Both the position numbers and the translations under genes were made by a program. Below, piece after piece: positions 3,501 to 56,419 of a stretch of DNA of 64,000 bases. Below the pieces are notes generated by a model. It was not told where the DNA came from and searched no databases. It worked only from the letters and a program-made list of their open reading frames with translations. Every line of letters begins with the position of its first letter. The first letter of the stretch is position 1. The stretch comes from Elusimicrobiota bacterium (GTDB lineage: Bacteria > Elusimicrobiota > Elusimicrobia > UBA1565 > UBA9628): assembly GCA_016209035.1 (NCBI GenBank), contig JACQWX010000126.1:16288-80287 (forward strand), given 5' to 3'.

Positions 3501-4829
3501 GGGCCCGGGTGCACCTCCACTCCTACCTTCACGACCGGGCCGCCGGGCCTTGGGCCGGCCTTCGCTTTCCCGGGGGTCTCCAGCTCCATGGTGATCATGG
3601 CGGACCGCGGCGAATATCACTTCAGCGGCGACCTCTCGGTCAGCGCCTGGGTGAAGCCCTCCAAGACATCGCAGGCCAACGGCACGGCCATCGCGGCCAA
3701 GGGCCTCTTCAACTCCGAGGACTTCTGCCTGGACCTCACGAGCGACACGTACCGCTTCATGTTCAAGGCTACCTGGACCGTGCTCTCGACCATGACGGCG
3801 AGGCTCGGGACCTGGGACCATGTCATGGGGGTCTACTCCGACATGGGCGGCACCCTCAAGATCTACGTGAACGGCATCCAGTCCGGCCCGGCGACGGCCG
3901 CGGCCGGCAGGGCTTGGAGCGCCGAGCCCTTGAGCGTCGGGAGCCGGAGGAACGCCTCGGGGATCTACGCCCTCTCGTTCTCGGGCGCGATCGACGAGGT
4001 GCGCGTCTTCGCCAGGGCGCTCGGGGACGCCGAGGTCCTCGCCGAGTACGAGGCGAGCAAGCCCTTCGTCTACTCCGGAGCCACGACCGCCGACCGGGTT
4101 TCCGTCGAGCTCCCGCCCAACGCATTCACCTCGGGGGCTGCCGTCCTCTTTATCTCCCCCGATCCGGTCAGCCAGCCGGTGCGGCCCGGGGTCAACTTCA
4201 TTTCGGCGGGTCTGACCGTGATGCCCACCGCGCAGCGCTTCATCGACGGCACCCTCGTCGAGATCGTCCCCGTCATCGACGGCACTCCTTTCTCCGGGAC
4301 CCTGGGATCCGCGGCCACCGTCTACATCTCCTACACGGACAAGGACAACGACGGCGTCCTTGACGGCAGCAACCCGCCGATCCACGCCTCGACCCTGAGG
4401 ACCTTCGTCTTCGAGCCCAGCGTCATGCGCTGGGACGAACTCCCCAGCTCCATCGACTACGCCAACCGGCGGGTGGCGGCCCTCACCCGCCACTTCTCGG
4501 TCTTCGCGCTCTTCGGCGCCCAGGTCTACGGCAACAGCCTGCGGGAGGTCCGGGTCTATCCGGTCCCCTGGCAGATCGGCTCCGGAGGCCGGTTCGACGC
4601 GGAGGTCCTGGTCTTCGACCGGCTGCCGACCGACGGCCTGATCCGCATCTACAACCTCGCGGCGGAGAAGATCGTGGAGTTGGGCTTCGGGCCGTCCGAC
4701 CAGGGCAGGGTCGTGTGGAACGGCAACAACTACGTCGGGCAGCCCGTCGCAAGCGGCGTCTATCTCGCGTACGTCAAGTCGTCGACGGACGGGGCGCAGC
4801 GCATCCTCAAGTTCGTGGTGGAACGGTGA
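576..4829 (+). CDS. giant secreted surface protein (1417 aa): N-terminal Cys-rich repeats, two LamG/ConA-like (Laminin_G_3) domains, at least four fibronectin type III domains, and a T9SS-type C-terminal sorting domain; alternative start at Met codon near 718
   Basis: signal-peptide-like APLLACLLAAAMPAFA-AGP; the conserved Trp/Tyr-spaced FN3 beta-sandwich pattern recurs through the central part of the protein (roughly 2200-3350); LamG motifs (NQWHHVAVVR...DDVRLWRYSMTDDEM; LSVSAWVKPS...IDEVRVFARAL); C-terminus VRVYPVPWQIG...IRIYNLAAEKIVELGF...VASGVYLAYVKSSTDGAQRILKFVV resembles the Por-secretion CTD / FlgD-Ig-like sorting domain. Confidence 0.85.
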   Translation: MWTSVSPATMLTGFLKWPPAAHVFPDGAGDARPPAWTAPLLACLLAAAMPAFAAGPGISEPQVQQCNDTFVSGSSTRKASPQIKVPIQDPTGLRVGITSTPYRSAAGFGMWRFNTSYTKALENNCLEQGNKRIRSWVYRYDDPETAEPVIVGRCAYSASTPTAGCAADLNTMVLDATVTQFPIRTPYPWVSCPSSTQTIANHPATYSFNPTTRTVDSGCLPEATCGSAKNCRYWTWTYEDAFSNITAGRCTYSASSTTPECGAGIGSMSLSATLPWPIIQPELFSIGACPASTATLPSGNQPTTIPLGRFDTGLFRDSVHAPVVESTQALTIGIYYTMSAWVRTSAGGLQRIFSHQDGTKYWGFGLNGGALRRFDSREDAGNQDNSLGSGLNDNQWHHVAVVRRDGVEWEFYKDGQSLGTTPARTAAAFSTGFSNPAYVGSYLGSSEFFNGMIDDVRLWRYSMTDDEMALDYNATVHRFSINGGSSFSYVFRDPPSNAYNPPASNGTTVTVYYQPAVQSDITTDHKYVFMAQDRTGEYTVQAPYTVYVDKTPPSKPVLSGAPQSTNEILWTWPTPASFCGPPEYAAFYTLINPGSGATIMSVLDPTLQILENFGGEPPNQLHGRVISATDIYGTSPLSDCTTAYTKAAQPTALAATSISTGSFVLQWNNQNNPNYTRYELQYSTVDGFASGAVTLAAISDDFNGSQKGVSGLQNGTTYYARVRAKNGRQTDSYGTDLTAYATADFTTLPAAPVLTGAALSTGSVRWDWTSVTGAFGYKLYSSTNGLMVDTPALSYSSSTLSTNTAYGASVEAYDRYGTAGPRSPTVYIFTLATSPVNASITAVSTNEITVSWDANGNGPQTYYEVVIATNSAFAAALSTQGVTGTSATIKDLFPKTTYYFRVRAVSGGGVATPFIPETPLKAVTYPNPYVSVSDPLTSPYVLKDGLVGLWHMDESSNTSAADSSYTNNVGTLTCMGPGCTSTPTFTTGPPGLGPAFAFPGVSSSMVIMADRGEYHFSGDLSVSAWVKPSKTSQANGTAIAAKGLFNSEDFCLDLTSDTYRFMFKATWTVLSTMTARLGTWDHVMGVYSDMGGTLKIYVNGIQSGPATAAAGRAWSAEPLSVGSRRNASGIYALSFSGAIDEVRVFARALGDAEVLAEYEASKPFVYSGATTADRVSVELPPNAFTSGAAVLFISPDPVSQPVRPGVNFISAGLTVMPTAQRFIDGTLVEIVPVIDGTPFSGTLGSAATVYISYTDKDNDGVLDGSNPPIHASTLRTFVFEPSVMRWDELPSSIDYANRRVAALTRHFSVFALFGAQVYGNSLREVRVYPVPWQIGSGGRFDAEVLVFDRLPTDGLIRIYNLAAEKIVELGFGPSDQGRVVWNGNNYVGQPVASGVYLAYVKSSTDGAQRILKFVVER
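631..682 (-). repeat. GC-rich palindromic element, family A copy 1 (inverted orientation), in-frame in the 5' end of the giant-protein gene (encodes ..HVFPDGAGDARPPAW..)
   Basis: cctgccgcccacgtctttcctgatggcgcaggggacgctcggcctccggcctg is about 90% identical to the reverse complement of 9362-9410 and is related to 16046-16095 and 16211-16266; stem CCTGC(C)GCC / GGCGCAGG. Confidence 0.7.
3294..3303 (+). repeat. G10 homopolymer tract inside the giant-protein CDS (codons for SGGGV)
   Basis: agcggggggggggtcgcg read directly from the sequence; mononucleotide runs of 9 or more are slippage-prone. Confidence 0.9.
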
Positions 4830-4832
4830 ACG

Positions 4833-4884
4833 GCAAGGAATCCATCGGTGGAAGGTCTCGCAGAGCGGCTAGGATTCCTTGCCG
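4833..4884 (+). promoter_or_regulatory. intergenic 12-bp perfect inverted repeat (GGCAAGGAATCC ..28 nt.. GGATTCCTTGCC) followed by a second short hairpin (GTCCCGCcttGCGGGAC); partial terminator or attenuator between the cargo and barrel genes
   Basis: seen directly 4 nt after the giant-protein stop codon; no U-tract. Confidence 0.4.
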
Positions 4885-4927
4885 GCGTCCCGCCTTGCGG
4901 GACTGTCCCTCCCTTGAATTGATTGGA

Positions 4928-5923
4928 ATGGGACGTGTCTGCGTTCCCGTTTTCTTAGGTCTCCTTCTTGCCGTTTCGCTGTGGGCTCCGCCCACAGCGA
5001 GGGCATCTTTCAAGCGCCGGGACACCGGCTCCAACGCCGCTCAGTTCCTCAAGCTCGGGGCGGACGCCCGCGCGGCTGGCATGGGCCAGGCCGTCCGGTC
5101 CCTGGCCGAGGACGCGACCTCCGTCTACTGGAACCCGGCGGGACTCTCGGGCTTGAGGCTGCGGCACGCGACCTTCTCCCACGGAGCCCTCTACCAGGGC
5201 ATCTTCTACGATTTCCTCGCCTATGCCCAGCCCATCGAGTCGATCCTCGGGCGCAAGGAGCCGCGGCAGATCCGCGAGAGCCAGCTCGGAAGCCTGGGCG
5301 TCGCCTTGTTCTACATGAACGCGGGCTCCCTGCAGGAGACCGACAACACCGGGACCGCGACCGGCGGCAGCTTCATGCCCCAGGAGTTCGCCGGCGCGGT
5401 GGCCTGGGGCGGACGGCTCTCCTCGAACCTGGACGCCGGCATCGGCGTCAAGTTCATCCACTCGAAGCTCTACGAAAGCGCCCAGACCGCGGCGGGCGAC
5501 GTCGGAGCCAGGCTGCGCTTGAGGATCGCGCGCATGCCTCTGACCCTGTCGGTCGGGGCACACAACTTCGGGGGCAGCCTGAGGTACGGGCGGCAAAGCC
5601 AGGACCTCCCCTTCTTCGTGAGCGCCGGGGCCGGCCTGCGCGTAACCAAGGGCCTCATCCTGACCGGCGACCTCGTCGCGCCGCGGGACAACCGGCTCTA
5701 CGCCGCGGCGGGACTCGAGTTCCGGCAGGCCCTCACCTCCAAGGCGGGCTTCTCCCTGCGGGCCGGCTACAACGGGATGAACTACGACAGCGACCTCATG
5801 GGCCTCTCCGCGCTGGGGCTGGGAGCCGGGGTGCGCTTCCATCGGGTGGACGTGGACTACGCCTGGACGCCGTTCGGCATACTCACCACCGGCCACCGTT
5901 TCTCCCTCGCCTACCGATTCTGA
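4928..5923 (+). CDS. PorV/PorQ-family (FadL-like) outer-membrane beta-barrel protein (331 aa)
   Basis: signal peptide MGRVCVPVFLGLLLAVSLWAPPTARA; N-terminal family motif NAAQFLKLGADARAAGMGQAVRSLAEDATSVYWNPAGLSG (G.ARa.gMGgA..a.adDasA.ywNPAGL shared by PorV/PorQ/UPF0164/FadL-like barrels); C-terminal aromatic residue (..SLAYRF); immediately downstream of a CTD-bearing cargo. Confidence 0.75.
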   Translation: MGRVCVPVFLGLLLAVSLWAPPTARASFKRRDTGSNAAQFLKLGADARAAGMGQAVRSLAEDATSVYWNPAGLSGLRLRHATFSHGALYQGIFYDFLAYAQPIESILGRKEPRQIRESQLGSLGVALFYMNAGSLQETDNTGTATGGSFMPQEFAGAVAWGGRLSSNLDAGIGVKFIHSKLYESAQTAAGDVGARLRLRIARMPLTLSVGAHNFGGSLRYGRQSQDLPFFVSAGAGLRVTKGLILTGDLVAPRDNRLYAAAGLEFRQALTSKAGFSLRAGYNGMNYDSDLMGLSALGLGAGVRFHRVDVDYAWTPFGILTTGHRFSLAYRF

Positions 5924-5950
5924 CGCCCGTGTTTTTCCTATAATAGGCCC

Positions 5951-6958
5951 ATGGCCAAGAAGGTCCTCGTCACCGGATGCTCCGGCTACCTGGGAGAGCT
6001 CCTGGTCAGGAACCTCCTCGCCCACCCCCTCGTCCAGAAGGTGGTGGCCGTGGACCTCAAGCCTCCCAAGGTCCCGGCGCGGCACAAGTTCAAGCATTGC
6101 GCCGCCGACATCCGCGACGAGTTCCTCCTGCGCAGCATCATCGAGGAGGAATCCGTCGACACCATCTTCCACCTCGCGTTCATGGAAGCCGACCCCAGCC
6201 GGGCCGTGCTGTCCCACGCGATGAACGTCGGCGGGACGCTGACCGTGTTCGACGCCGCCAACCGGAGCGCGGCGGTCAACAAGCTCGTGATCACGAGCTC
6301 GACCTGGGCCTATGGCGCCCGCCGCGGGAACCCCGTGCCCCTGCGGGAGAGCGACCGCTTGAGGGCCACGGACTGGCCTTACGGGCTGCACAAGAGGCTC
6401 GTGGAGGAGGAGCTCGCCAAATCCCTTGCCCATTGCCGCAAGGGACTCAACGTGGCGGTCCTGCGGCTGGCCACGGTCGTCGGCGGGTCGGAGAGGCCCA
6501 AGGGGCCCGTGCGGCTCTTCTGCGAGGCGCCGTTCGGCGTGTCCGTCATGCTGCGCGGCGGCGAGATGCAGTTCCTCAGCGAGGCGGACTTCTGTAGAAC
6601 GATGAACCGCGCGATGGAGGAGCCCTCCTTCAGCGGGACCTACAACGTCGCCCCCGACGGCTGGACGACGGTCGCCGCTTTGTGCAGGAGGCTGGGCAAG
6701 ACGCGCATCCCCCTGCCCTATTCGTTCCTTTGGCTCTACTTCTTCCTCTCCAACACCCCGCGCCGGAAGGACTCCGTTTCCGAGGAACTGGCGGACATCC
6801 TGGCGTTCCCCGTGGTGGTCTCCAACGAGAAGATCAAGAAAGCCTTGGGCCTCGTCTTCGAGAAGGACTCCGAGGCCGCGTTCCTGGAGTGCGCCGCCGC
6901 CTGCGGCTGGAAGCCCCCGGCCCCTGCGCCTCTGGCGCAGGGGCCGCATGGGAAGTGA
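5951..6958 (+). CDS. NAD-dependent epimerase/dehydratase (SDR family)
   Basis: N-terminal Rossmann motif VLVTGCSGYLGELLV; length 335 aa. Confidence 0.8.
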   Translation: MAKKVLVTGCSGYLGELLVRNLLAHPLVQKVVAVDLKPPKVPARHKFKHCAADIRDEFLLRSIIEEESVDTIFHLAFMEADPSRAVLSHAMNVGGTLTVFDAANRSAAVNKLVITSSTWAYGARRGNPVPLRESDRLRATDWPYGLHKRLVEEELAKSLAHCRKGLNVAVLRLATVVGGSERPKGPVRLFCEAPFGVSVMLRGGEMQFLSEADFCRTMNRAMEEPSFSGTYNVAPDGWTTVAALCRRLGKTRIPLPYSFLWLYFFLSNTPRRKDSVSEELADILAFPVVVSNEKIKKALGLVFEKDSEAAFLECAAACGWKPPAPAPLAQGPHGK

Positions 6959-7544
6959 CATGGCGATGAAGGCGAACGACCCTGCCGCCGGCCTCGACCG
7001 CGTCGCGGGGCACATCCGCGCCATCCTCAGAGAGATCGGGGAAGACCCCGGCCGCCCGGGCATCGAGAAGACTCCCCGTCGCTACGCCAAGGCCCTCAGG
7101 GAGCTCACCTGCGGCTACGCGACCGACCTGGATGTCCTCTTCAACGGGGCGATGTTCCCCGTCTCCTACCATGAGATGGTCCTGGTCAAGGACATCCCGT
7201 GGTACTCGCTGTGTATGCATCACCTCCTCCCCTTCTTCGGCAAGGCGCACGTCGCCTACGTCCCGGACGGCAGGATCGTGGGCCTCTCCAAGATCCCCAA
7301 GCTCGTCGAGACCTTCAGCCGCAGGCTGCAGGTGCAGGAGCGCATGACCTGCCAGATCGCGCAGGCCCTGGCCGAGCGGCTCTCCCCGCTCGGGGTCGGG
7401 GTCGTGCTGGAGGCCCGGCACATGTGCATGGAGATGCGCGGCGCCAGGTCCGTGATGACGCCGACCGTGACCAGCGCCATGCTCGGCTGCTTCAGGAAGG
7501 ACCCCCGCACCCGGGAGGAGTTCCTCAGCCTTGTCCGGGGATGA
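6948..7544 (+). CDS. folE: GTP cyclohydrolase I
   Basis: conserved FolE core ...LCMHHLLPFFGKAHVAYVPDGRIVGLSKIPKLVETFSRRLQVQERMTCQIAQAL...; overlaps the upstream gene by 11 nt. Confidence 0.85.
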   Translation: MGSDMAMKANDPAAGLDRVAGHIRAILREIGEDPGRPGIEKTPRRYAKALRELTCGYATDLDVLFNGAMFPVSYHEMVLVKDIPWYSLCMHHLLPFFGKAHVAYVPDGRIVGLSKIPKLVETFSRRLQVQERMTCQIAQALAERLSPLGVGVVLEARHMCMEMRGARSVMTPTVTSAMLGCFRKDPRTREEFLSLVRG

Positions 7545-23840: not shown

Positions 23841-25384
23841 GCCCCGACGACCCCTCCGCGCCCCCGCCGCCCCCTCCGGGGGCTCCCATCCCGCCGGCGC
23901 CGCCTGCGCCCGAGCTCGTCCGGCCCGCGCCCACCCCTGCGCAGCAGGTCCCGCGCACCCCGATGATGGATTTCATGGAGCGAAGGCTCGCCGCCCTCGA
24001 GGCCGATCTCGCCCGGGAACGCGAGCGCGCCTCCTCGGCGGAGAGCGTGCTCAAGGCCCAGGCCTCCATGCGCTCCGAGGTCGAGGCCCAGCTCAAAGCC
24101 CTGACGGACCAGCTCCGGCGGGAGAAGTCCGACCGGGACCATGAGGAGTCCTCCTCCCAGGCCAAGGGCCGGATCTCTGCGCTCGAGGAGCGGCTCGACT
24201 CGCTGCACCGCACCTGGGCCGACCTGCTCAAGGAGACGCTCCTGGGCAAGGAGGTCGTGGCCAAGGTTTGGCCGGCCGAGGTCGTGGGCGAGATGAAGGA
24301 GTGGCGCCAAGCCCTCTCAGCCCTCCCCAGGCTCGTCGACGCGGTCGCGGACCTCGAATCGCGCCAGCGGGGCCAGGACCTCCAGGTCAAGGATGAGCTG
24401 CGCGCCCTCGTCGGGGACCTTTCCGCCGCGTTGCGGGAACGCTTCGCCGACGCGGAACATAAGCGCGAGATCGACCTGGCCAAGGCTGACGACCGCCTCG
24501 GGGCCGTGGCCCGTGAACGGCTCGCCCTGCGGGAAGCCTTCGACGAGGCCGGCCACGCCCTGCGCTCCGACCTCCTCAAGGAGCGCCTCGCCCAGGAAGC
24601 GGCCTTCAACGAGGCCCTCTCCGGCATCGCGGCCCGCATCGACGACCTCGGCCGCCGCCACGCCCAATCCGACCGGGAGACCTCGGAGCTCAAGGAGGTC
24701 CTCGGCCAGGCCCTCTCCAGGGCCGAGCCCAAGGCCAAGGACGCGGTGATGGCGGAACTCGAGCACGAGAACGCCGACCTGCGCGGGATGCTCTCCGAGC
24801 GCATCGAGGCCTTGAGGCGCTACACCGAAGAGAGGAAGCGCATCGAGGCCAGCATGGGAGAGAGCCTCCTGGCCTTGAACCGCGAGCTCTCGCAAGAGAA
24901 GGCGAGAGGCCTCGAAGCCGGCCGGCGGATGATGGAGAAGGACCTGGAGATCACTTCGCTCAAGGACAGGCTCGACATGGCCTCCAAGACCGTCGAGGAG
25001 AGGGAGACGCGCTTCGCGTGTCTCGCGGTTGAGCGCGACGAGATCGCCCGCGCGATGGCGGCCGAGGCCGGGAGGCTCCGGGACGCCATTGAAGCCCGCA
25101 GGGTCTCCGACGAGACCTGGGCCAAGAAGGTCGCCGAGATGGAGAAGAAGCTCGACGAGGCCGCCGATATCTCCCAGCGGGAGGCGGCGTCGCGCCGGGA
25201 CCTTGCCAGCCAGGCGGCCGTCCTCTCCTCCCACGCCGCCAAAGCCCTCCAGGAGAGGGACGCCGCCGTCCAGGGCAGCGCCTCCTGGCAGGAAGAGCGC
25301 GCCCGGCTCCTGGAAGCCCTCAGGAAGAAGGACGACCTCATCTCCATGCTCTCCGCGTCGTTCCAGAACATCTTGAAGAAGTAG
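23837..25384 (+). CDS. proline-rich N-terminus plus long coiled-coil protein (515 aa), translationally coupled (ATGA overlap) to the PorV/PorQ-like gene
   Basis: MSPDDPSAPPPPPPGAPIPPAPPAPELV... then about 450 aa of heptad-like E/R/A/L-rich sequence; no TM; start overlaps the upstream stop. Confidence 0.6.
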   Translation: MSPDDPSAPPPPPPGAPIPPAPPAPELVRPAPTPAQQVPRTPMMDFMERRLAALEADLARERERASSAESVLKAQASMRSEVEAQLKALTDQLRREKSDRDHEESSSQAKGRISALEERLDSLHRTWADLLKETLLGKEVVAKVWPAEVVGEMKEWRQALSALPRLVDAVADLESRQRGQDLQVKDELRALVGDLSAALRERFADAEHKREIDLAKADDRLGAVARERLALREAFDEAGHALRSDLLKERLAQEAAFNEALSGIAARIDDLGRRHAQSDRETSELKEVLGQALSRAEPKAKDAVMAELEHENADLRGMLSERIEALRRYTEERKRIEASMGESLLALNRELSQEKARGLEAGRRMMEKDLEITSLKDRLDMASKTVEERETRFACLAVERDEIARAMAAEAGRLRDAIEARRVSDETWAKKVAEMEKKLDEAADISQREAASRRDLASQAAVLSSHAAKALQERDAAVQGSASWQEERARLLEALRKKDDLISMLSASFQNILKK

Positions 25385-25416
25385 CGGTCCGTCCTTCACG
25401 GCCTTCCGTCAAGGCC

Positions 25417-25503
25417 TTACAGCCCATAGCCGCATGGACCCGCCTCGTAGACCACGGCCAGCCGCGGATGCTCGGCCTTCAGCCGACGGAACAGCTTGTC
25501 CAC
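25417..25503 (-). pseudogene. remnant of an IS110-family-like transposase N-terminus (fragment only, preceded by an in-frame stop)
   Basis: minus-strand translation VDKLFRRLKAEHPRLAVVYEAGPCGYGL* fits the IS110-family N-terminal pattern (..hydrophobic-x-[MV]-EA-x-G-x-x-[YH]..L); lies at the left edge of the low-G+C island. Confidence 0.3.
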
Positions 25504-25718
25504 CGCATCACACCCCACGGTTCAAAGGTCGGCGAGCCAGAAAATCGCACTACGGTGGGTAGGTGCCTAACATTCATGCGTTGGGCTGACTGGATGCTCT
25601 CACCAGGGGAAGCGAATACGGCCCCCGGACGGACGACAGAAAAGATACAATGAACGTATCCCCAAGCGATTCCGCCAAACAAATCGGGCAGCCGCTATAG
25701 ACCATTAAGGATGAGAAG

Positions 25719-26458
25719 ATGATATCAGCCAAGACATTGGCGGCAATAAGTTCCAAAACGATCGCCTACTGGAAGGCCGAAGTAAAAAAGCCCGAGATAG
25801 TCGGAATCGCCAAGGGCAAAGAAATCGGCCACAAACTCGCAGCAAGGGCAAAGAAATCGGCCACAAACTCGCAGACCTCGTCGATGAGAAAACGACGGCA
25901 CTGCTCACGGTGGAATTCCTCACGAAACACCAACGGGACTCGCAGGGCCAAAAGCGGTCACGCAGCATGGGCGATTTGTGGTTGCAGGACAGTGGTATTT
26001 ATCATCCGGTCAACGTCAAGACGGGCATCGTTGGCGCAGAAGGCCAGCCAAATCTGGTCTCGTTGAAAAAGGTTTTCAGCGCCATTATGGCGAGGCAGAT
26101 TGACTCCTACTATCTCTTGATTGTCAAAATGGACATTAGCGCCAAAGGAATTGCGCCATCCGTGTGCCTCATTGACATGCTTGACTGGCTAGACTACGTC
26201 ACTTTTGATTCTGGCCCCGGCCAGATGATGCTGAGAGCTGTCAAGTTCTTCGCCGAATTCGATCCGACGAAAGTCAAGACCCTCGACATCAAGAGCAAAG
26301 CGCAGAGACTCATGGAGTTGTACGAGGATGGCGAACGGAGACTCAAGGAGAACCGCGAGAGAGACCTTCAGCACTACCGACATGAGTTTCGTGATTTCCT
26401 CGCGGGCAAGAATTTCCGCGTCACGCCCGAAACTCAAAGGAGCCTCATCCTGCAATGA
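25719..26458 (+). pseudogene. type II restriction endonuclease candidate inactivated by a frameshifting 32-bp tandem duplication (intact length would be 235 aa)
   Basis: the N-terminal reading frame (MISAKTLAAISSKTIAYWKAEVKKPEIVGIAKGKEIGHKLA) continues seamlessly into ORF 25910-26458 (..DLVDEKTTALLTVEFLTKHQRDSQ...) once one 32-bp copy is removed; stop overlaps the start of the adjacent DNA methyltransferase (ATGA); low-G+C island. Confidence 0.55.
25811..25874 (+). repeat. perfect 32-bp tandem duplication (caagggcaaagaaatcggccacaaactcgcag x2)
   Basis: read directly; unit length not divisible by 3, so it frameshifts the restriction endonuclease (REase) gene. Confidence 0.95.
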
Positions 26459-28164
26459 GTGTTGCGAGACTTTCACGAGATCGAAAACGCCAGCTTGGCC
26501 AGTTCCTGACCCCCGATTCCACTGCGGCGGCCATCGCTAGAGACTTGCGAATATTGCCAAGTCACCGGATATTGGAGCCATCATTCGGTGAGGGCTCTTT
26601 TATCTTTCAAGTGATCGATTCCCTCAAAGCCGACATCCCCCGCAATGACATCCATGCATGGTGCAACGCGCATCTTTTCGGCTGCGAAATCGATGCCGAC
26701 GCACATGGGACCTTCAAGGAAACCTGGCAGTCCAGGGGTTTAGGTGGGGTTCCCAACAACTTGGAACACTGCGACTTTTTTGAGTGGCTACCTCCCGGTT
26801 GTGACCGAACAGCCGCCACCAATCGCCAACGATACTTCGCATCTCCCCTGGAGTATTTCGATCTCGTGATAGGCAATCCGCCCTTTGGCGGAAGCATCAA
26901 CCCGGACATCCAAGATGAACTAGATAGCATCTTCGGCTTCCGTGACGGCCGGAAGATCAAGAAGGAAACCTATGCGTTCTTCATTGTTAAGTGCGTCGAC
27001 CTATTGAAGTCGGGCGGGAGACTTGTATTCATTTGCAGCGATACGATTCTTACTATTGCAACCATGACGGGGCTCCGCGCATGGCTTCAGAGCAACTGTA
27101 GCATTCAGATATCAGAGGTTCCGGGGTCCTTCTCAGACACCAATCAAGATATGCTGCTTGTTACGCTTACCAAGCACCCAATCGAACCTCGACAGATCAC
27201 AGTATTTGGAACATGCCTTCCCCTTTCTGAGATTGAAGCGACGCCAAACATGAGTTGGCGTGTCAGCGGCGATTTGGCCAAGTACTTCACCGGGGCAACG
27301 GTCGGGGAGAAGATGGTCGCGACATCCGGCATGACCATCGGCAACAACGAGCTCTTTCTTCGCCCGATCATACAAGGCGAGATTCATGAGCCCTATGCTT
27401 TCTCGTTCACCGCTCGCCCCATTACTGTCCAAAGAGAGATTACCCGCGCACGACTAGGCAAGGTGCCCCCGCGTCGCCTAATAGCTGTCCGAGAACAGGA
27501 GGCGCGTTGTGCCACCGAAAGGGTTGTCGTCTGGGACCGATTGAAAAACCCGCGCCCAGTGAAACTCCCACACGCTGACTACTGCTACTACAACAAGGCC
27601 ACCTCACGGATCATCTACTCAGAACCTGAATGGGTGATCTTCTGGCGCGGCGATGGGGAGTATGTCTACACCTTTAAGAAGACCGGCAATTGGTACCTCC
27701 ATGGCGTTGGTGGCATGAAGTACTTCGGGCGCGAGGGACTCTCATGGTCACTCATCGCGCCTAGGCTCTACGCACGATACCTGCCTCCCGGGTATATCCT
27801 AGACAGTGGAGCGCCATGCGCTTTCTTGCGACAAGGAGTCCCGCAGGATGAGTTATTTTTCATTCTTGGCTGGGCACTTACCGACTTGTGCAACCGCATC
27901 CTTAAAGAAGTGCTGAATCACACACGAAATATCCAGAGCAAGGACTTCGAACGCCTCCCGTATCCCGTCTGGGTTGATGCAGAATCTAAACAGCAAGCCG
28001 TTCTTGCGGTCAGAAGCCTGGTATCGAAAGCAAGGGCAGGACACTCGTTCTCGATGAAGAGCTCGGAGGTTCACGCCCTGAACCTGTTTTATGCATGGCG
28101 GGATTGTCGGGTGGCGGTTGTTGCCAAGAAGAAGAACGCCCCCATTCAAATTCCACTCTTCTGA
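26455..28164 (+). CDS. N6-adenine-specific DNA methyltransferase, gamma-class (motif order X, I, IV), 569 aa
   Basis: LGQFLTPDSTAAAIA (motif X), ILEPSFGEGSFIFQ (motif I, FxGxG), DLVIGNPPFGGSI (motif IV, NPPF); large C-terminal target-recognition region. Confidence 0.85.
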   Translation: MSVARLSRDRKRQLGQFLTPDSTAAAIARDLRILPSHRILEPSFGEGSFIFQVIDSLKADIPRNDIHAWCNAHLFGCEIDADAHGTFKETWQSRGLGGVPNNLEHCDFFEWLPPGCDRTAATNRQRYFASPLEYFDLVIGNPPFGGSINPDIQDELDSIFGFRDGRKIKKETYAFFIVKCVDLLKSGGRLVFICSDTILTIATMTGLRAWLQSNCSIQISEVPGSFSDTNQDMLLVTLTKHPIEPRQITVFGTCLPLSEIEATPNMSWRVSGDLAKYFTGATVGEKMVATSGMTIGNNELFLRPIIQGEIHEPYAFSFTARPITVQREITRARLGKVPPRRLIAVREQEARCATERVVVWDRLKNPRPVKLPHADYCYYNKATSRIIYSEPEWVIFWRGDGEYVYTFKKTGNWYLHGVGGMKYFGREGLSWSLIAPRLYARYLPPGYILDSGAPCAFLRQGVPQDELFFILGWALTDLCNRILKEVLNHTRNIQSKDFERLPYPVWVDAESKQQAVLAVRSLVSKARAGHSFSMKSSEVHALNLFYAWRDCRVAVVAKKKNAPIQIPLF

Positions 28165-28367
28165 TGCGCAGTAAAAGAGTTGAGGCACTTCTCGAAGCAG
28201 CGGCCAGGATCAGGGAATTCTGTAACGCGCGTGGCTACGATTTCCAGGGGCGTCTACTCGTAAGGCGACAGAATCGCAGTCTAAAAGTCATCGCGCCTGA
28301 ACTTATTGACCTTTGCATAACTAATGGAAGGATGGCTCATCGTTTCCATGGGAGATCGGAAGCATAG
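28164..28367 (+). CDS. small hypothetical protein (67 aa) translationally coupled to the MTase (TGATG overlap)
   Basis: MRSKRVEALLEAAARIREFCNARGYDFQGRLLVRRQNRSLKVIAPELIDLCITNGRMAHRFHGRSEA; no recognisable domain. Confidence 0.35.
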   Translation: MRSKRVEALLEAAARIREFCNARGYDFQGRLLVRRQNRSLKVIAPELIDLCITNGRMAHRFHGRSEA

Positions 28368-28580
28368 ATGCAGGACCATAGCAGCTTCTGGGATTGTCGG
28401 ATTCGCTGGAGCGGGCGATGAATGCGGCTCTTGAGGTCGCAGAGGTCCTTGGGCGAGCTGTTGGCCAGCGGCCCTTTGACCAGCTTCCAGACCCACTTTC
28501 AAAACGGCTTCCATAAATACTACATTAGCCCCCTCAATGCTCGCCTCCCCGCGGGGGAGGCTCGCGACAAGGCTTGCGAC

Positions 28581-29612
28581 ATGAAAGCCGCCATCATCAA
28601 GCGATTCGGAGGGCCGGAGAACATCGAGCTCGCCGACCTCCCAACGCCGACGCCTGGACCGGGAGAAGTCCTGGTGCGCGTGCGGGCAACCGCCTTGAAC
28701 CACCTGGACGTCTGGGTGCGCAACGGCATCCCAGCCTACAAGATCTCCCTTCCCCATGTCTTGGGCTCGGACGTGGCCGGCGAAGTCGAAGCCCTGGGAC
28801 CGCTCGTCAAGAGCGTGCGCGTCGGGTCCAGGGTGAGCGTGGCGCCCGGGCGTTCCTGCTGGGGCTGCGAGTACTGCCTCGGGGGCCGCGACAACTACTG
28901 CGCCGAGTACGGCATCATCGGCGCCCACGGAGGGCCCGGGGGCTACGCCGAGTACCTCTGCGTCCCGCAGATGTACCTCCTTCCGGCGCCGGACTCCATG
29001 AGCTTCGAGGAGGCCGCGGCCTATCCGCTCACCATGTTGAGCGCCTGGCACATGCTGGTGGAGCTCGGGCGGGTAGGCGCGGGGCAGGTCGTGGTCGTGA
29101 TGGGCGCAGGCGCCGGGATGGGCGCGGCCGCCATCCAGGTCGCCAAGTTCGCCGGCGCCCGCGTGATCGCGGTCTCCACTTCACCGGACAAGCTGGAGAA
29201 GGCGAAAGCCCTCGGCGCGGACGACGCCGTGGCCTGCCCTCCCGGCGACATAGTGCGGCAGGTGGCGGCGTTCACCGGCGGAGCCATGGCCGACATCGTG
29301 GTCGAGCATGTCGGCCCCGCGGTGTTCGAGAGCGCCCTCAGGGCCTTGAAGCGCGGGGGCAGGCTCGTGACCTGCGGGGCGACCACCGGTCCGACCGTCA
29401 GCCTCGACCTGCGCCTTGTCTTCAGCCGCCAGCTCCATATCCGGGGCTCCTACATGGGCTCTCTGCGGGCCATGCGGCTGGTTTCGCGCCTCGTGGGCGA
29501 GGGGAGACTCCGGCCCGTCATCGACAGGACCTTCCCGCTCTCGCAAGCCCGTGCCGCGCACGAATACCTGGAGTCCCGCAAGCAGTTCGGGAAGGTCGTC
29601 CTCAAGGTTTGA
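28581..29612 (+). CDS. zinc-type alcohol dehydrogenase / quinone oxidoreductase (MDR superfamily)
   Basis: MKAAIIKRFGGPENIELADLPTPTPGPGEVLVRVRATALNHLDVWVRNG; Rossmann motif VVVMGAGAGMGAAAIQVAKFAGARVIAV; the real start is the internal Met of ORF 28422-29612. Confidence 0.85.
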   Translation: MKAAIIKRFGGPENIELADLPTPTPGPGEVLVRVRATALNHLDVWVRNGIPAYKISLPHVLGSDVAGEVEALGPLVKSVRVGSRVSVAPGRSCWGCEYCLGGRDNYCAEYGIIGAHGGPGGYAEYLCVPQMYLLPAPDSMSFEEAAAYPLTMLSAWHMLVELGRVGAGQVVVVMGAGAGMGAAAIQVAKFAGARVIAVSTSPDKLEKAKALGADDAVACPPGDIVRQVAAFTGGAMADIVVEHVGPAVFESALRALKRGGRLVTCGATTGPTVSLDLRLVFSRQLHIRGSYMGSLRAMRLVSRLVGEGRLRPVIDRTFPLSQARAAHEYLESRKQFGKVVLKV

Positions 29613-51880: not shown

Positions 51881-53262
51881 TGCTCACCAAGATCGCGGAG
51901 AGGGTCCTGCTCGTCGGCGTGGGACTCAAGCCCCCGGGCCTGCGGCCCAGGGGCCTGGGGCCCGACGGCCCCATGGGGCCGTCGGGCCGCACGGTCGAAG
52001 ACAGCCTCTCCGAGCTGCGCGGCTTGGTCGAGACCGCGGGCGCCGTGGTCGCGGGGACCGTGAGCCAGTCGGTGACGCGCTACCATCCCGGGACCCTCAT
52101 CGGCAGCGGCAAGGTGCTGGAGGTCGCTCAGATGGCCCGAGAAGTCTCGGCCCGCACCGTCATCCTCGACGCGGACCTGTCCCCCGCCCAGCAGAAGACG
52201 CTGGAGAAGGCGACCGACTCCAAGGTCATCGACCGCACCAGGCTCATCCTCGACATCTTCGCGAAGCGCGCCAAGACCTCCGAGGGCCGGCTCCAGGTGG
52301 AGCTCGCCCAGCTCTCCTACCTCCTGCCGCGCTTGACCGGGGCCTGGCGCTCCTTCTCCCAGCAGGTCGGCGGCATCGGCACCCGCGGCCCCGGAGAGCG
52401 CAAGCTGGAATACGAACGGCGCCACATCCAGTCGCGCATCACGCGCTTGAAGAGCGAGATCGAGAAGGTCAAGGCGCGGCGTCAGGTGCAGCGCTCGAGG
52501 CGGCTCTCCATCCCCGTGCCCCTCGTCGCGATCATCGGCTACACCAACGTCGGGAAATCCACCCTGCTCAACGCCCTGCTGTCGCAAGCCTCCCGTGTCG
52601 CGAGCCCCCCCCGCGGGGGGGCGAGCATCGGGGGGGCAGATGAGGGGGCAAGAAGCCGTTTCGTCTACGCCGACGACAAGCTCTTCGCGACCCTCGACCC
52701 GACCACGCGGCGCGTGCGCCTGCCGGACGGGACCCATGTGGTGGCCACGGACACGGTTGGCTTCATCCGGCGCCTGCCTACGGCGCTGGTGGCGGCGTTC
52801 CGCTCCACGCTGGAGGAGGCGGGCCTCGCCGACTGCCTGCTCGTCGTGACGGACGCCACCGCCCCTGACTTTTCGGCGCAGGACAGCGCCGTCGACGCCG
52901 TCCTCGACGAGCTCGGCGCAGGCGCGGTGCCCAGGGTCGAGGTCTTCAACAAGACGGACCTCGTCAGCCCCGAGCGAAGACGGGAGCTCGCGCTCTCCCA
53001 TCCGGGCCGGACGCTCATCTCGGCCGTGACCGGGGAAGGCATCTCGGCCGCGCTCGACCGGGTCCAGGAGATACTCTCGCGCAGGTGGCTCCTGAGGGAG
53101 CTCGACCTCCCGCACGGCGCGGGTCGGTTCGCCTCCGTCATCTACGCCAGCAGCCAGGTCATCAAAGAGACGCATGACGGGACCATGGTCCGCTACCGGA
53201 TGAGGGTCACGGCCGAGAACTGGGAGCGACTGCGGGCATTGACGCGGCAGTATTTTTGCTAG
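51880..53262 (+). CDS. hflX: GTPase HflX (with two atypical in-frame GC-rich insertions)
   Basis: HflX N-domain ERVLLVGV...LVETAGAVV; G1 GYTNVGKSTLLNAL; G2 LFATLDPT; G3 DTVGFI; G4 NKTD. Confidence 0.85.
   Translation: MLTKIAERVLLVGVGLKPPGLRPRGLGPDGPMGPSGRTVEDSLSELRGLVETAGAVVAGTVSQSVTRYHPGTLIGSGKVLEVAQMAREVSARTVILDADLSPAQQKTLEKATDSKVIDRTRLILDIFAKRAKTSEGRLQVELAQLSYLLPRLTGAWRSFSQQVGGIGTRGPGERKLEYERRHIQSRITRLKSEIEKVKARRQVQRSRRLSIPVPLVAIIGYTNVGKSTLLNALLSQASRVASPPRGGASIGGADEGARSRFVYADDKLFATLDPTTRRVRLPDGTHVVATDTVGFIRRLPTALVAAFRSTLEEAGLADCLLVVTDATAPDFSAQDSAVDAVLDELGAGAVPRVEVFNKTDLVSPERRRELALSHPGRTLISAVTGEGISAALDRVQEILSRRWLLRELDLPHGAGRFASVIYASSQVIKETHDGTMVRYRMRVTAENWERLRALTRQYFC
51931..51990 (+). repeat. 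60-bp GC-rich palindromic in-frame insertion in hflX (encodes PPGLRPRGLGPDGPMGPSGR), related to family B
   Basis: cccccgggcctgcggcccaggggcctggggcccgacggccccatggggccgtcgggccgc; contains a perfect 13-bp stem GCCCGACGGCCCC atg GGGGCCGTCGGGC. Confidence 0.65.
52594..52656 (+). repeat. homopolymer-rich palindromic in-frame insertion in the hflX G-domain (C8-GC-G7, G7, G5)
   Basis: cgagccccccccgcgggggggcgagcatcgggggggcagatgagggggc encodes RVASPPRGGASIGGADEGARSR between the P-loop and switch I. Confidence 0.6.
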
Positions 53263-56282: not shown

Positions 56283-56346
56283 CGGATTTCGAGGGGAACG
56301 GCAACGGCCTAAGCCCCCTCGGCTACTCGCCTCCCCGTGGGGGAGG

Positions 56347-56419
56347 CGAGTGACACGGGGTATAGCTCAATTGGCAGAGCGCTTGGTTCGGGACCAAGAG
56401 GTTCTCAGTTCGACCCTGA
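56347..56419 (+). tRNA. tRNA-Pro (anticodon CGG), no encoded CCA
   Basis: acceptor CGGGGTA/TACCCCG, anticodon arm CTTGG-TTCGGGA-CCAAG, T-arm CTCAG-TTCGACC-CTGAG. Confidence 0.8.

Follow-up and report, generated by a model that had tools for sequence, protein, structure and literature searches.

Type II restriction enzymes of the fold class represented by EcoRV, HincII and SwaI are homodimers that cut DNA to leave blunt ends. Here we describe a locus from a metagenome-assembled genome (MAG) of an Elusimicrobiota bacterium (assembly GCA_016209035.1, contig JACQWX010000126.1, positions 16,288 to 80,287; this entire stretch of 64,000 nucleotides is referred to as 'the window', and coordinates are given relative to its first letter) in which the gene for a putative endonuclease of this fold, interrupted in the assembly by a perfect 32-bp tandem duplication, precedes the gene for an apparently intact gamma-class N6-adenine DNA methyltransferase ('methylase'). 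Among the described restriction-modification (R-M) systems, the HincII/HindII system likewise combines an endonuclease of this kind (R.HincII; PDB entries 3ebc and 1kc6) with a gamma-class N6-adenine methylase (M.HincII). However, the window endonuclease (R) exhibits only 11–14% identity to R.HincII in structural alignments, with no detectable sequence similarity, and its identity to R.SwaI (5tgq/5tgx), R.EcoRV (1eo3) and R.NlaIV (6qm2) is as low as 7–11%.

The locus is also to be compared with two familiar fates of R-M genes. Orphan methyltransferases resulting from decay of the R gene have been seen in many bacterial genomes, for example in those of Helicobacter and Mycoplasma, and the window resembles these in that a frameshifted R gene lies beside an intact methylase (M) gene, as is also the case at four related loci (L008, L066, L068 and L069). 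It differs in that the R gene is interrupted by a perfect tandem duplication of 32 bp and not by a homopolymer slip or a deletion. Moreover, since an intact allele with 100% identity persists elsewhere, the window represents at most the first step of such a decay and not a settled orphan. In phase-variable R-M systems, simple-sequence repeats reside in Type III mod/res or Type I hsdS genes; here, too, an R-M gene changes its frame with the number of repeat copies, and both a one-copy and a two-copy state are found in nature. In contrast to those systems, however, the window carries a unique segment of 32 bp that is duplicated once instead of a hypermutable tract of 1–8-bp units, relatives do not share the feature, and it is the R gene of a Type II system that is affected. 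Taken together, we consider it likely that a fresh 32-bp duplication has knocked out the R gene of an acquired Type II cassette and left the methylase intact, while an intact allele coexists with the broken one.

Tandem Repeats Finder (TRF) reports a repeat with a period of 32, 2.0 copies and 100% matches at positions 25811–25874. Both units on the plus strand, copy 1 (25811–25842) and copy 2 (25843–25874), are identical and read CAAGGGCAAAGAAATCGGCCACAAACTCGCAG; copy 1 encodes part of the invariant block AKGKEIGHKLA, and copy 2 is the extra unit, which is absent from two further assemblies of the same DNA (L009 and L010; see below). The junction between the copies reads CTCGCAG/CAAGGGC (the slash marking the boundary), while the single-copy allele consists of GGAATCGC, one unit and ACCTCGTC. 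The R gene itself extends from 25719 to 26458 on the plus strand. As written in the assembly, its open reading frame (ORF) covers 25719–26066 and yields a 115-residue product of 41 native and 74 out-of-frame residues, ending at a stop codon at 26064–26066; the duplication acts as a +2 frameshift after codon 41, and the downstream frame is open only from a GTG at 25910 or from Met73. When 25719–25842 is joined to 25875–26458, that is, when one copy is removed, an ORF of 708 nt and 235 residues is obtained, the TGA of which overlaps the ATG of the methylase gene (26455) by 4 bp as ATGA. The repair junction falls within IAKGKEIGHKLADLVDEKT, the block that is most conserved in the family, where an alignment of 37 sequences shows no gap, and the repaired frame is, as judged from the alignment, evidently the ancestral one. 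The sequence-only reading of this DNA had claimed that a perfect 32-bp tandem duplication breaks the frame of an endonuclease gene and that removal of one copy restores a continuous ORF with an ATGA overlap to a 569-aa gene; both statements are borne out by TRF and by the direct comparisons.

The product of 41 native and 74 nonsense residues would thus be devoid of function. Translation restarted at GTG 25910 or Met73 would yield a protein without the three N-terminal helices and without the conserved D42/D45 block, and restriction would therefore be abolished. The methylase, encoded by the translationally coupled downstream gene, would meanwhile protect the host copies of the target site of R, and the duplication would constitute a very young loss-of-function allele that coexists with an intact one. 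As a separate observation, the public annotation lists the endonuclease remnant (25935–26458) as a 163-aa hypothetical protein (HY748_17705, MBI4679414.1), which is 100% identical to the repaired protein, and the methylase as a protein of 517 aa (MBI4679415.1) that starts at Val53 and is devoid of motif I, although a 569-aa ORF is open. On account of this hypothetical protein and this truncated methylase, the public annotation of the MAG is misleading.

The repaired 235-aa protein belongs to a large family. It has 490 homologues, dozens of which comprise exactly 235 residues and match at 100% query coverage with up to 80% identity, and 197 clusters were retrieved when 1.8 billion cluster representatives were searched exhaustively. 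The family constitutes a sequence cluster of its own, the members of which are annotated as 'hypothetical protein' in all sources. When the repaired protein was searched against Pfam and NCBIfam (E-values up to 1) and against PADLOC (E-values up to 0.1), zero matches were obtained, and there was no PDB sequence or profile match to a nuclease; the protein thus falls outside the named restriction endonuclease (REase) families represented by the RE_ and Endonuc- entries of Pfam, by NCBIfam and by REase_II of PADLOC. Its structural matches point in a clear direction: the top four are all Type IIP restriction enzymes, covering 167–191 residues, and the N-terminal helices and the mixed β-sheet nuclease core can be superimposed on those of EcoRV, HincII and SwaI. 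In the 37-sequence alignment, D75 and K90 are invariant and exhibit an EcoRV-like spacing, which leads us to a tentative active-site assignment; the block would then be D75...N88-V-K90, with Asn replacing Asp90 of EcoRV. D45 is conserved at a level of at least 90% and may, along with the neighbouring E46, supply an extra acidic group. The composition of the active site in this family (residues 75–90, corresponding to 25973–26020) may be unusual.

One could alternatively view the 235-aa protein as another type of PD-(D/E)XK nuclease, or as a DNA-binding partner of the methylase serving as its specificity or regulatory subunit. This would be in line with the lack of a sequence-level match to any named REase family and with the fact that the canonical second acidic residue is not evident. 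We regard it as barely credible, however, considering that (i) all of the top four structural matches are Type IIP restriction enzymes, (ii) the gene is strictly paired, across phyla, with a stand-alone methylase gene located downstream, as in classical Type II systems, and (iii) size and architecture match those of SwaI, HincII and EcoRV. Fold and conserved pairing with the methylase hence support the classification of the repaired ORF as a PD-(D/E)XK restriction endonuclease with predicted activity, which agrees with its earlier designation as a putative REase, albeit one outside the named sequence families. The protein would be an endonuclease of the EcoRV/HincII/SwaI fold class and would presumably produce blunt ends.

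It is of key importance for the interpretation of the duplication that the same cassette is found without it. An exact-sequence look-up of the 569-aa methylase yielded two other contigs, namely L009 (2,852 bp), a Logan assembly of run SRR12113406, and L010 (2,708 bp) from assembly GCA_964590065.1. Alignment with the window, over 2,824 bases for L009 (25702–28557) and 2,708 bases for L010 (25702–28441), reveals 0 mismatches and a single copy of the unit in either case; outside the extra unit there are 0 gaps, and both contigs contain the intact 235-aa gene. The intact allele exists on an otherwise identical background. The left breakpoint of the DNA shared with the single-copy assemblies, as defined by blastn and direct comparison, is at 25702, that is, 17 nt upstream of the start codon of R: L010 begins exactly at this position, and L009 has 28 unrelated bases upstream of it (TTGACCGGAAATTAACTTAGCGGCGATG), a 28-mer that occurs nowhere in the 64-kb window. 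Since the left flanks differ at 25702, L009 and L010 represent a haplotype different from that of the window. With 0 mismatches to the single-copy allele over 2.8 kb, the duplication, if real, must be extremely recent, and the previously suggested very recent date of the event can be upheld on this condition. Exact-protein look-ups did not reveal a further occurrence of the duplicated allele or of the host flank, as neither the frameshifted product of 115 aa nor the annotated fragment of 163 aa nor the dehydrogenase encoded next to the island gave a match; when JGI metagenome contigs were scanned for the exact pattern of the allele, no match was obtained either.

One is then led to ask if the duplication was introduced during assembly or scaffolding, in which case the population would contain only the intact single-copy gene and a functional R-M system. 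Consistent with such an artefact, only a single unit is present in the otherwise 100% identical DNA of L009 and L010, which were assembled independently, and the exact ends of the duplication without microhomology are those expected for an unmerged overlap. Furthermore, the L009 contig, which was assembled with k=31, passes straight through the site, where a dominant 32-bp repeat would be expected to form a loop at this k; the unbroken contig suggests that the one-copy allele dominates at least in run SRR12113406. On the other hand, a de Bruijn graph assembler writes the junction between copy 1 and copy 2 only if the junction k-mers occur in the reads. Contigs obtained in this manner cannot hold a junction that is absent from the reads, which argues that the duplication is real. 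Likewise, the length of 32 bp is not that of the k-1 overlap at the final k of MEGAHIT (with its default k list), the duplication is the only exact tandem duplication of at least 15 bp within the window, and L009 and L010 possibly originate from other samples, with the sequences upstream of 25702 marking a different haplotype. Weighing both sides, we infer that the duplication is biological rather than technical, and quite probably a real allele specific to the sample or lineage; an artefact appears rather unlikely, even if it has to be taken seriously.

Several points do speak against the reading proposed here. Neither of the two direct comparisons, which were made with the assemblies L009 and L010, shows the duplication. 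At its ends, no microhomology is present (C before, A after), and a duplication devoid of flanking microhomology is unusual for replication slippage. In all 37 aligned members of the family, the position of the expected second acidic residue of the (D/E)XK motif is occupied by an invariant Asn (N88-V-K90). In the window haplotype, the DNA upstream of position -17 relative to R is replaced by insertion-sequence debris, possibly including the promoter, which renders expression of the methylase uncertain. Lastly, we take the MAG to belong to a study of Northern California groundwater and, if this assumption is correct, scaffolding with IDBA-UD could have created local errors. In the study in question (PMC7906910), MEGAHIT contigs were subsequently scaffolded with IDBA-UD. 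For run SRR12113406 no paper was found, and the run number is absent from the supplementary text of PMC7906910.

The relatives of the cassette provide the context in which both genes have to be viewed. A scan of one genome per GTDB species yielded 59 loci from more than 10 phyla, including Planctomycetota, Chloroflexota, Elusimicrobiota, Acidobacteriota, the Candidate Phyla Radiation (CPR), Gemmatimonadota and Actinomycetota. According to tblastn, a methylase homologue is located directly downstream of R in 56 of the 59, with two of the three exceptions being contig ends. At four loci (L001, L003, L005 and L006), both the 4-bp overlap and the methylase length of 569 aa are as in the window, in unrelated neighbourhoods, and the DNA similarity between window and relatives is confined to the two coding regions (25753–28083). 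Of 48 loci, 45 have a cassette whose G+C content is more than 3 points below that of the flanks; the mean values are 0.52 for the cassette and 0.62 for the flanks. Adjacent and co-oriented, the two genes are thus inherited together as is typical for Type II systems, and these findings support the view that they constitute a conserved, mobile Type II R-M cassette of predicted activity.

Lesions in R are encountered elsewhere in this family. L008 contains one additional T (~330–350) in the same KGKEIGH block of R, and L068, from an Uhrbacteria genome of NC groundwater, contains two additional G after MGDIW (~1075–1082). The R frameshifts of L066 (~4342–4348) and L069 (~4224) are located at places other than the duplication site, and in L026 (4381–5290) a deletion fuses R residue 127 to M residue 396. 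The broken R genes stand beside full-length methylase matches, and some of the lesions may be sequencing errors. M genes are, however, broken about as often as R genes, so that no clear bias towards loss of R alone can be recognized in this small sample: L004 (~9100) and L011 (~5265) have frameshifts in long-read contigs, L015 has an apparent insertion of ~1.8 kb (5242–7103), and the matches in L022 and L060 are truncated. Some of these M lesions are probably long-read errors. We also considered the duplicated block as a recurrent hot-spot and rejected the idea: L008 stands alone and carries a lesion of another type, and the other broken R genes are interrupted at other positions.

The comparison with relatives likewise bears on the suggestion, made in the sequence-only reading, that the 32-bp unit might be a reversible slippage switch; such a switch would turn restriction ON and OFF while methylation continues, and hence constitute a phase-variable barrier. 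One-copy and two-copy alleles do occur on an otherwise identical background of 2.8 kb, and a perfect repeat is generally expected to be deleted readily, which would restore R in a cell that is already methylated. A hypermutable tract conserved among relatives, as expected for phase variation, was not found: the relatives have unique sequence at the site, 37 aligned homologues reveal neither a repeat tract nor microhomology nor a duplication there, and the R and M genes of ~65 related loci contain no tandem duplication of at least 10 bp. Moreover, a duplication arising without microhomology should be rare, so that any switching would run predominantly in one direction; in the other broken R genes, either the position or the type of the lesion differs; and the alleles differ in their left flanks, and therefore represent separate haplotypes and not one locus that flickers. 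With no microhomology, no repeat tract in relatives and no recurrence, the suggestion of a switch finds no support, and we consider it very improbable. The preferred reading of a recent knock-out remains compatible with its reversal: since perfect tandem repeats are prone to deletion, the knock-out can in principle revert, and it is thus potentially reversible without being a switch.

One may nevertheless speculate, with little more credence, about a groundwater population in which ON (one-copy) and OFF (two-copy) alleles of R interconvert by gain and loss of 32 bp while the methylase stays on. If this were true, cells could drop and regain restriction without the lethal step of re-establishing methylation, and the locus would exemplify a Type II system that is switched off reversibly by means of a duplication, found in an uncultivated phylum and in a previously unnamed family with EcoRV fold. 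As a recent knock-out, which we favour, the event is of an ordinary, familiar kind that is well documented here, and the current view of R-M biology is unchanged by it. It then provides a clean, datable example of the first step of R loss with persistence of the methylase, in which the alleles differ only by the duplication over 2.8 kb. The identification of the family and of the intact allele at 100% identity elsewhere go beyond what had been read from the window at first. In addition, a function can be proposed for a widespread family of 'hypothetical' proteins, namely that of restriction enzymes with EcoRV fold, the strict partner of which is a gamma-class N6-adenine methylase of 569 aa; this family may be useful for the annotation of defence systems and is a possible source of new specificity.

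The methylase gene (26455–28164, plus strand) encodes 569 residues. Motif X (LGQFLTP), motif I (EPSFGEG, residues 41–47) and motif IV (NPPF, residues 141–144) are all present, and the Pfam families Eco57I (PF07669; E-value 2.8e-13, 50.8 bits with a cut-off of 25.3) and N6_Mtase (PF02384; 9.7e-9, 35.4 bits with a cut-off of 20.4) are both matched above their gathering scores. NCBIfam and PADLOC matches are to MTase_II, MAD2 and PglX-type enzymes, and PDB sequence matches include M.TaqI, BseCI and the BREX methyltransferase (BrxX). Alignment with three homologues of 65–72% identity is ungapped, apart from a gap of three residues in L005 near the C-terminus, and motifs I and IV are invariant in it. 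With motif I preceding motif IV and with a C-terminal target-recognition domain, the protein exhibits the features of the gamma class, and the earlier description as an intact gamma-class N6-adenine methylase with NPPF can be retained; its ORF is apparently of full length and intact. Residues ~373–536 (27570–28060) match BREX-1 PglX (NF033452; E-value 1.9e-23, with a score far below the family cut-off) and Type IIG enzymes, which suggests that the C-terminal part of the methylase may share a target-recognition or helical module with these proteins.

It is tempting to assume that the methylase is still expressed and active in the window haplotype. An AAGGAG is located 12 nt before its ATG; a promoter scan detected one site, no more than the 1.5 expected. 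The duplication would remove the translational coupling to full-length R, while a restart at GTG 25910 or Met73 would re-establish coupling.

The methylase stop codon overlaps, as TGATG, a further ORF of 67 codons (28164–28367, plus strand), which had been thought to complete the set. ORF and overlap do exist. However, the predicted product contains no Pfam, NCBIfam or PADLOC domain and has no homologue among 5.8 billion proteins; tblastn detects it only in L009 and L010, that is, in the same DNA, and none of the ~65 related cassettes is followed by it. On L009, it was not predicted by the gene caller. We therefore discarded its candidacy as a controller (C) protein or third subunit, for which domain, homologue and co-occurrence are lacking, and conclude that it is probably not a gene.

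The cassette resides in an island of ~3.1 kb with low G+C content, bordered by a coiled-coil gene on the left and by a zinc-type dehydrogenase gene (start at 28581) on the right. Between ~25400 and 28500, the G+C content of the window drops from 0.67–0.73 to 0.51–0.56, in accordance with the sharp decrease noted before; the R-M genes themselves have a value of 0.53, compared with 0.67 for the remaining window. Low G+C relative to the window, DNA homology to relatives that ends at the coding ends, and adjoining IS110 debris indicate a foreign origin, and support the classification of ~25420–28500 as a horizontally acquired R-M island flanked by insertion-sequence debris in a high-G+C Elusimicrobia genome. 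The acquisition had been proposed previously, and the conserved pair in unrelated contexts is likewise consistent with it.

On the left side, six-frame translation and tblastn identify a degenerate N-terminal remnant of an IS110-family transposase on the minus strand (25420–25690, with the upper limit of ~25690 being an estimate). It contains CDAVDKLFRRLKAEHPRLAVVYEAGPCGYGL followed by a stop codon, has at least one frameshift and has lost the C-terminal ~250–300 aa; VVYEAGPCGYGL is found on the minus strand at ~25425–25460. A tblastn search against plasmids matches 541–617 records, the best of which is annotated as 'IS110 family transposase' (70% identity over 30 aa, E-value 1e-4; with the frameshift bridged, 61% over 41 aa, E-value 1e-5), and the similarity to the DEDD N-terminal domain includes the conserved E-A-G/T-G block. 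The remnant, recognized as IS110-like from the start, is hence real. Fragments of 34–85 aa gave no match in Pfam, including PF01548, since they are too short or degenerate, and an Rfam scan of 25200–28800 detected neither an RNA family nor a match resembling an IS110 bridge RNA. In the simplest reading, an IS110-type element inserted just 5' of the R gene and was later truncated, with the native upstream region being replaced.

A possible C-terminal remnant of an IS630-type transposase (KWVWKLVKGPLANSSPKDLCDLKSRIHRPLQRIRQSQKLL...; 28340–28498, minus strand) was detected on the right side by a weak tblastn match, the best one being annotated as IS630 family transposase (51% over 46 aa, with an E-value of only 0.2); the fragment has no Pfam match. 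Directly upstream of the dehydrogenase start, a host-type intergenic palindromic repeat resembling repetitive extragenic palindromic (REP) elements spans 28504–28580 and has the core GCCTCCCCGCGGGGGAGGC. At least three copies with this core are present in the window, the others being located at 52581–52637 (minus strand, 86% over 57 nt) and 56312–56358, and the end of the L009 contig falls inside the copy at 28504–28580. Given the host-type nature of this repeat, we place the right edge of the island at ~28500. At the left edge, directly after the stop codon of the coiled-coil gene, a 13-bp unit (TCCGTCAAGGCCT) is repeated 2.1 times with 85% matches (25392–25418).

Further observations concern the surroundings of related cassettes. 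The contigs with the closest relative, L001 and L002, contain a second R-M pair, consisting of a SacI-type endonuclease and a D12-class methylase, ~6.4 kb (L001, 1–1563) and 3.7 kb (L002, 2184–4333) upstream, and a BrnT toxin gene is found immediately upstream of the cassette, so that these contigs look like a small defence or addiction neighbourhood. In L019, from the Anaerolineales, two methylase homologues (1335–2954 and 4705–6408), which are 50% and 47% identical to the window methylase, lie ~1.7 kb apart, and an endonuclease gene is located in front of only one of them.

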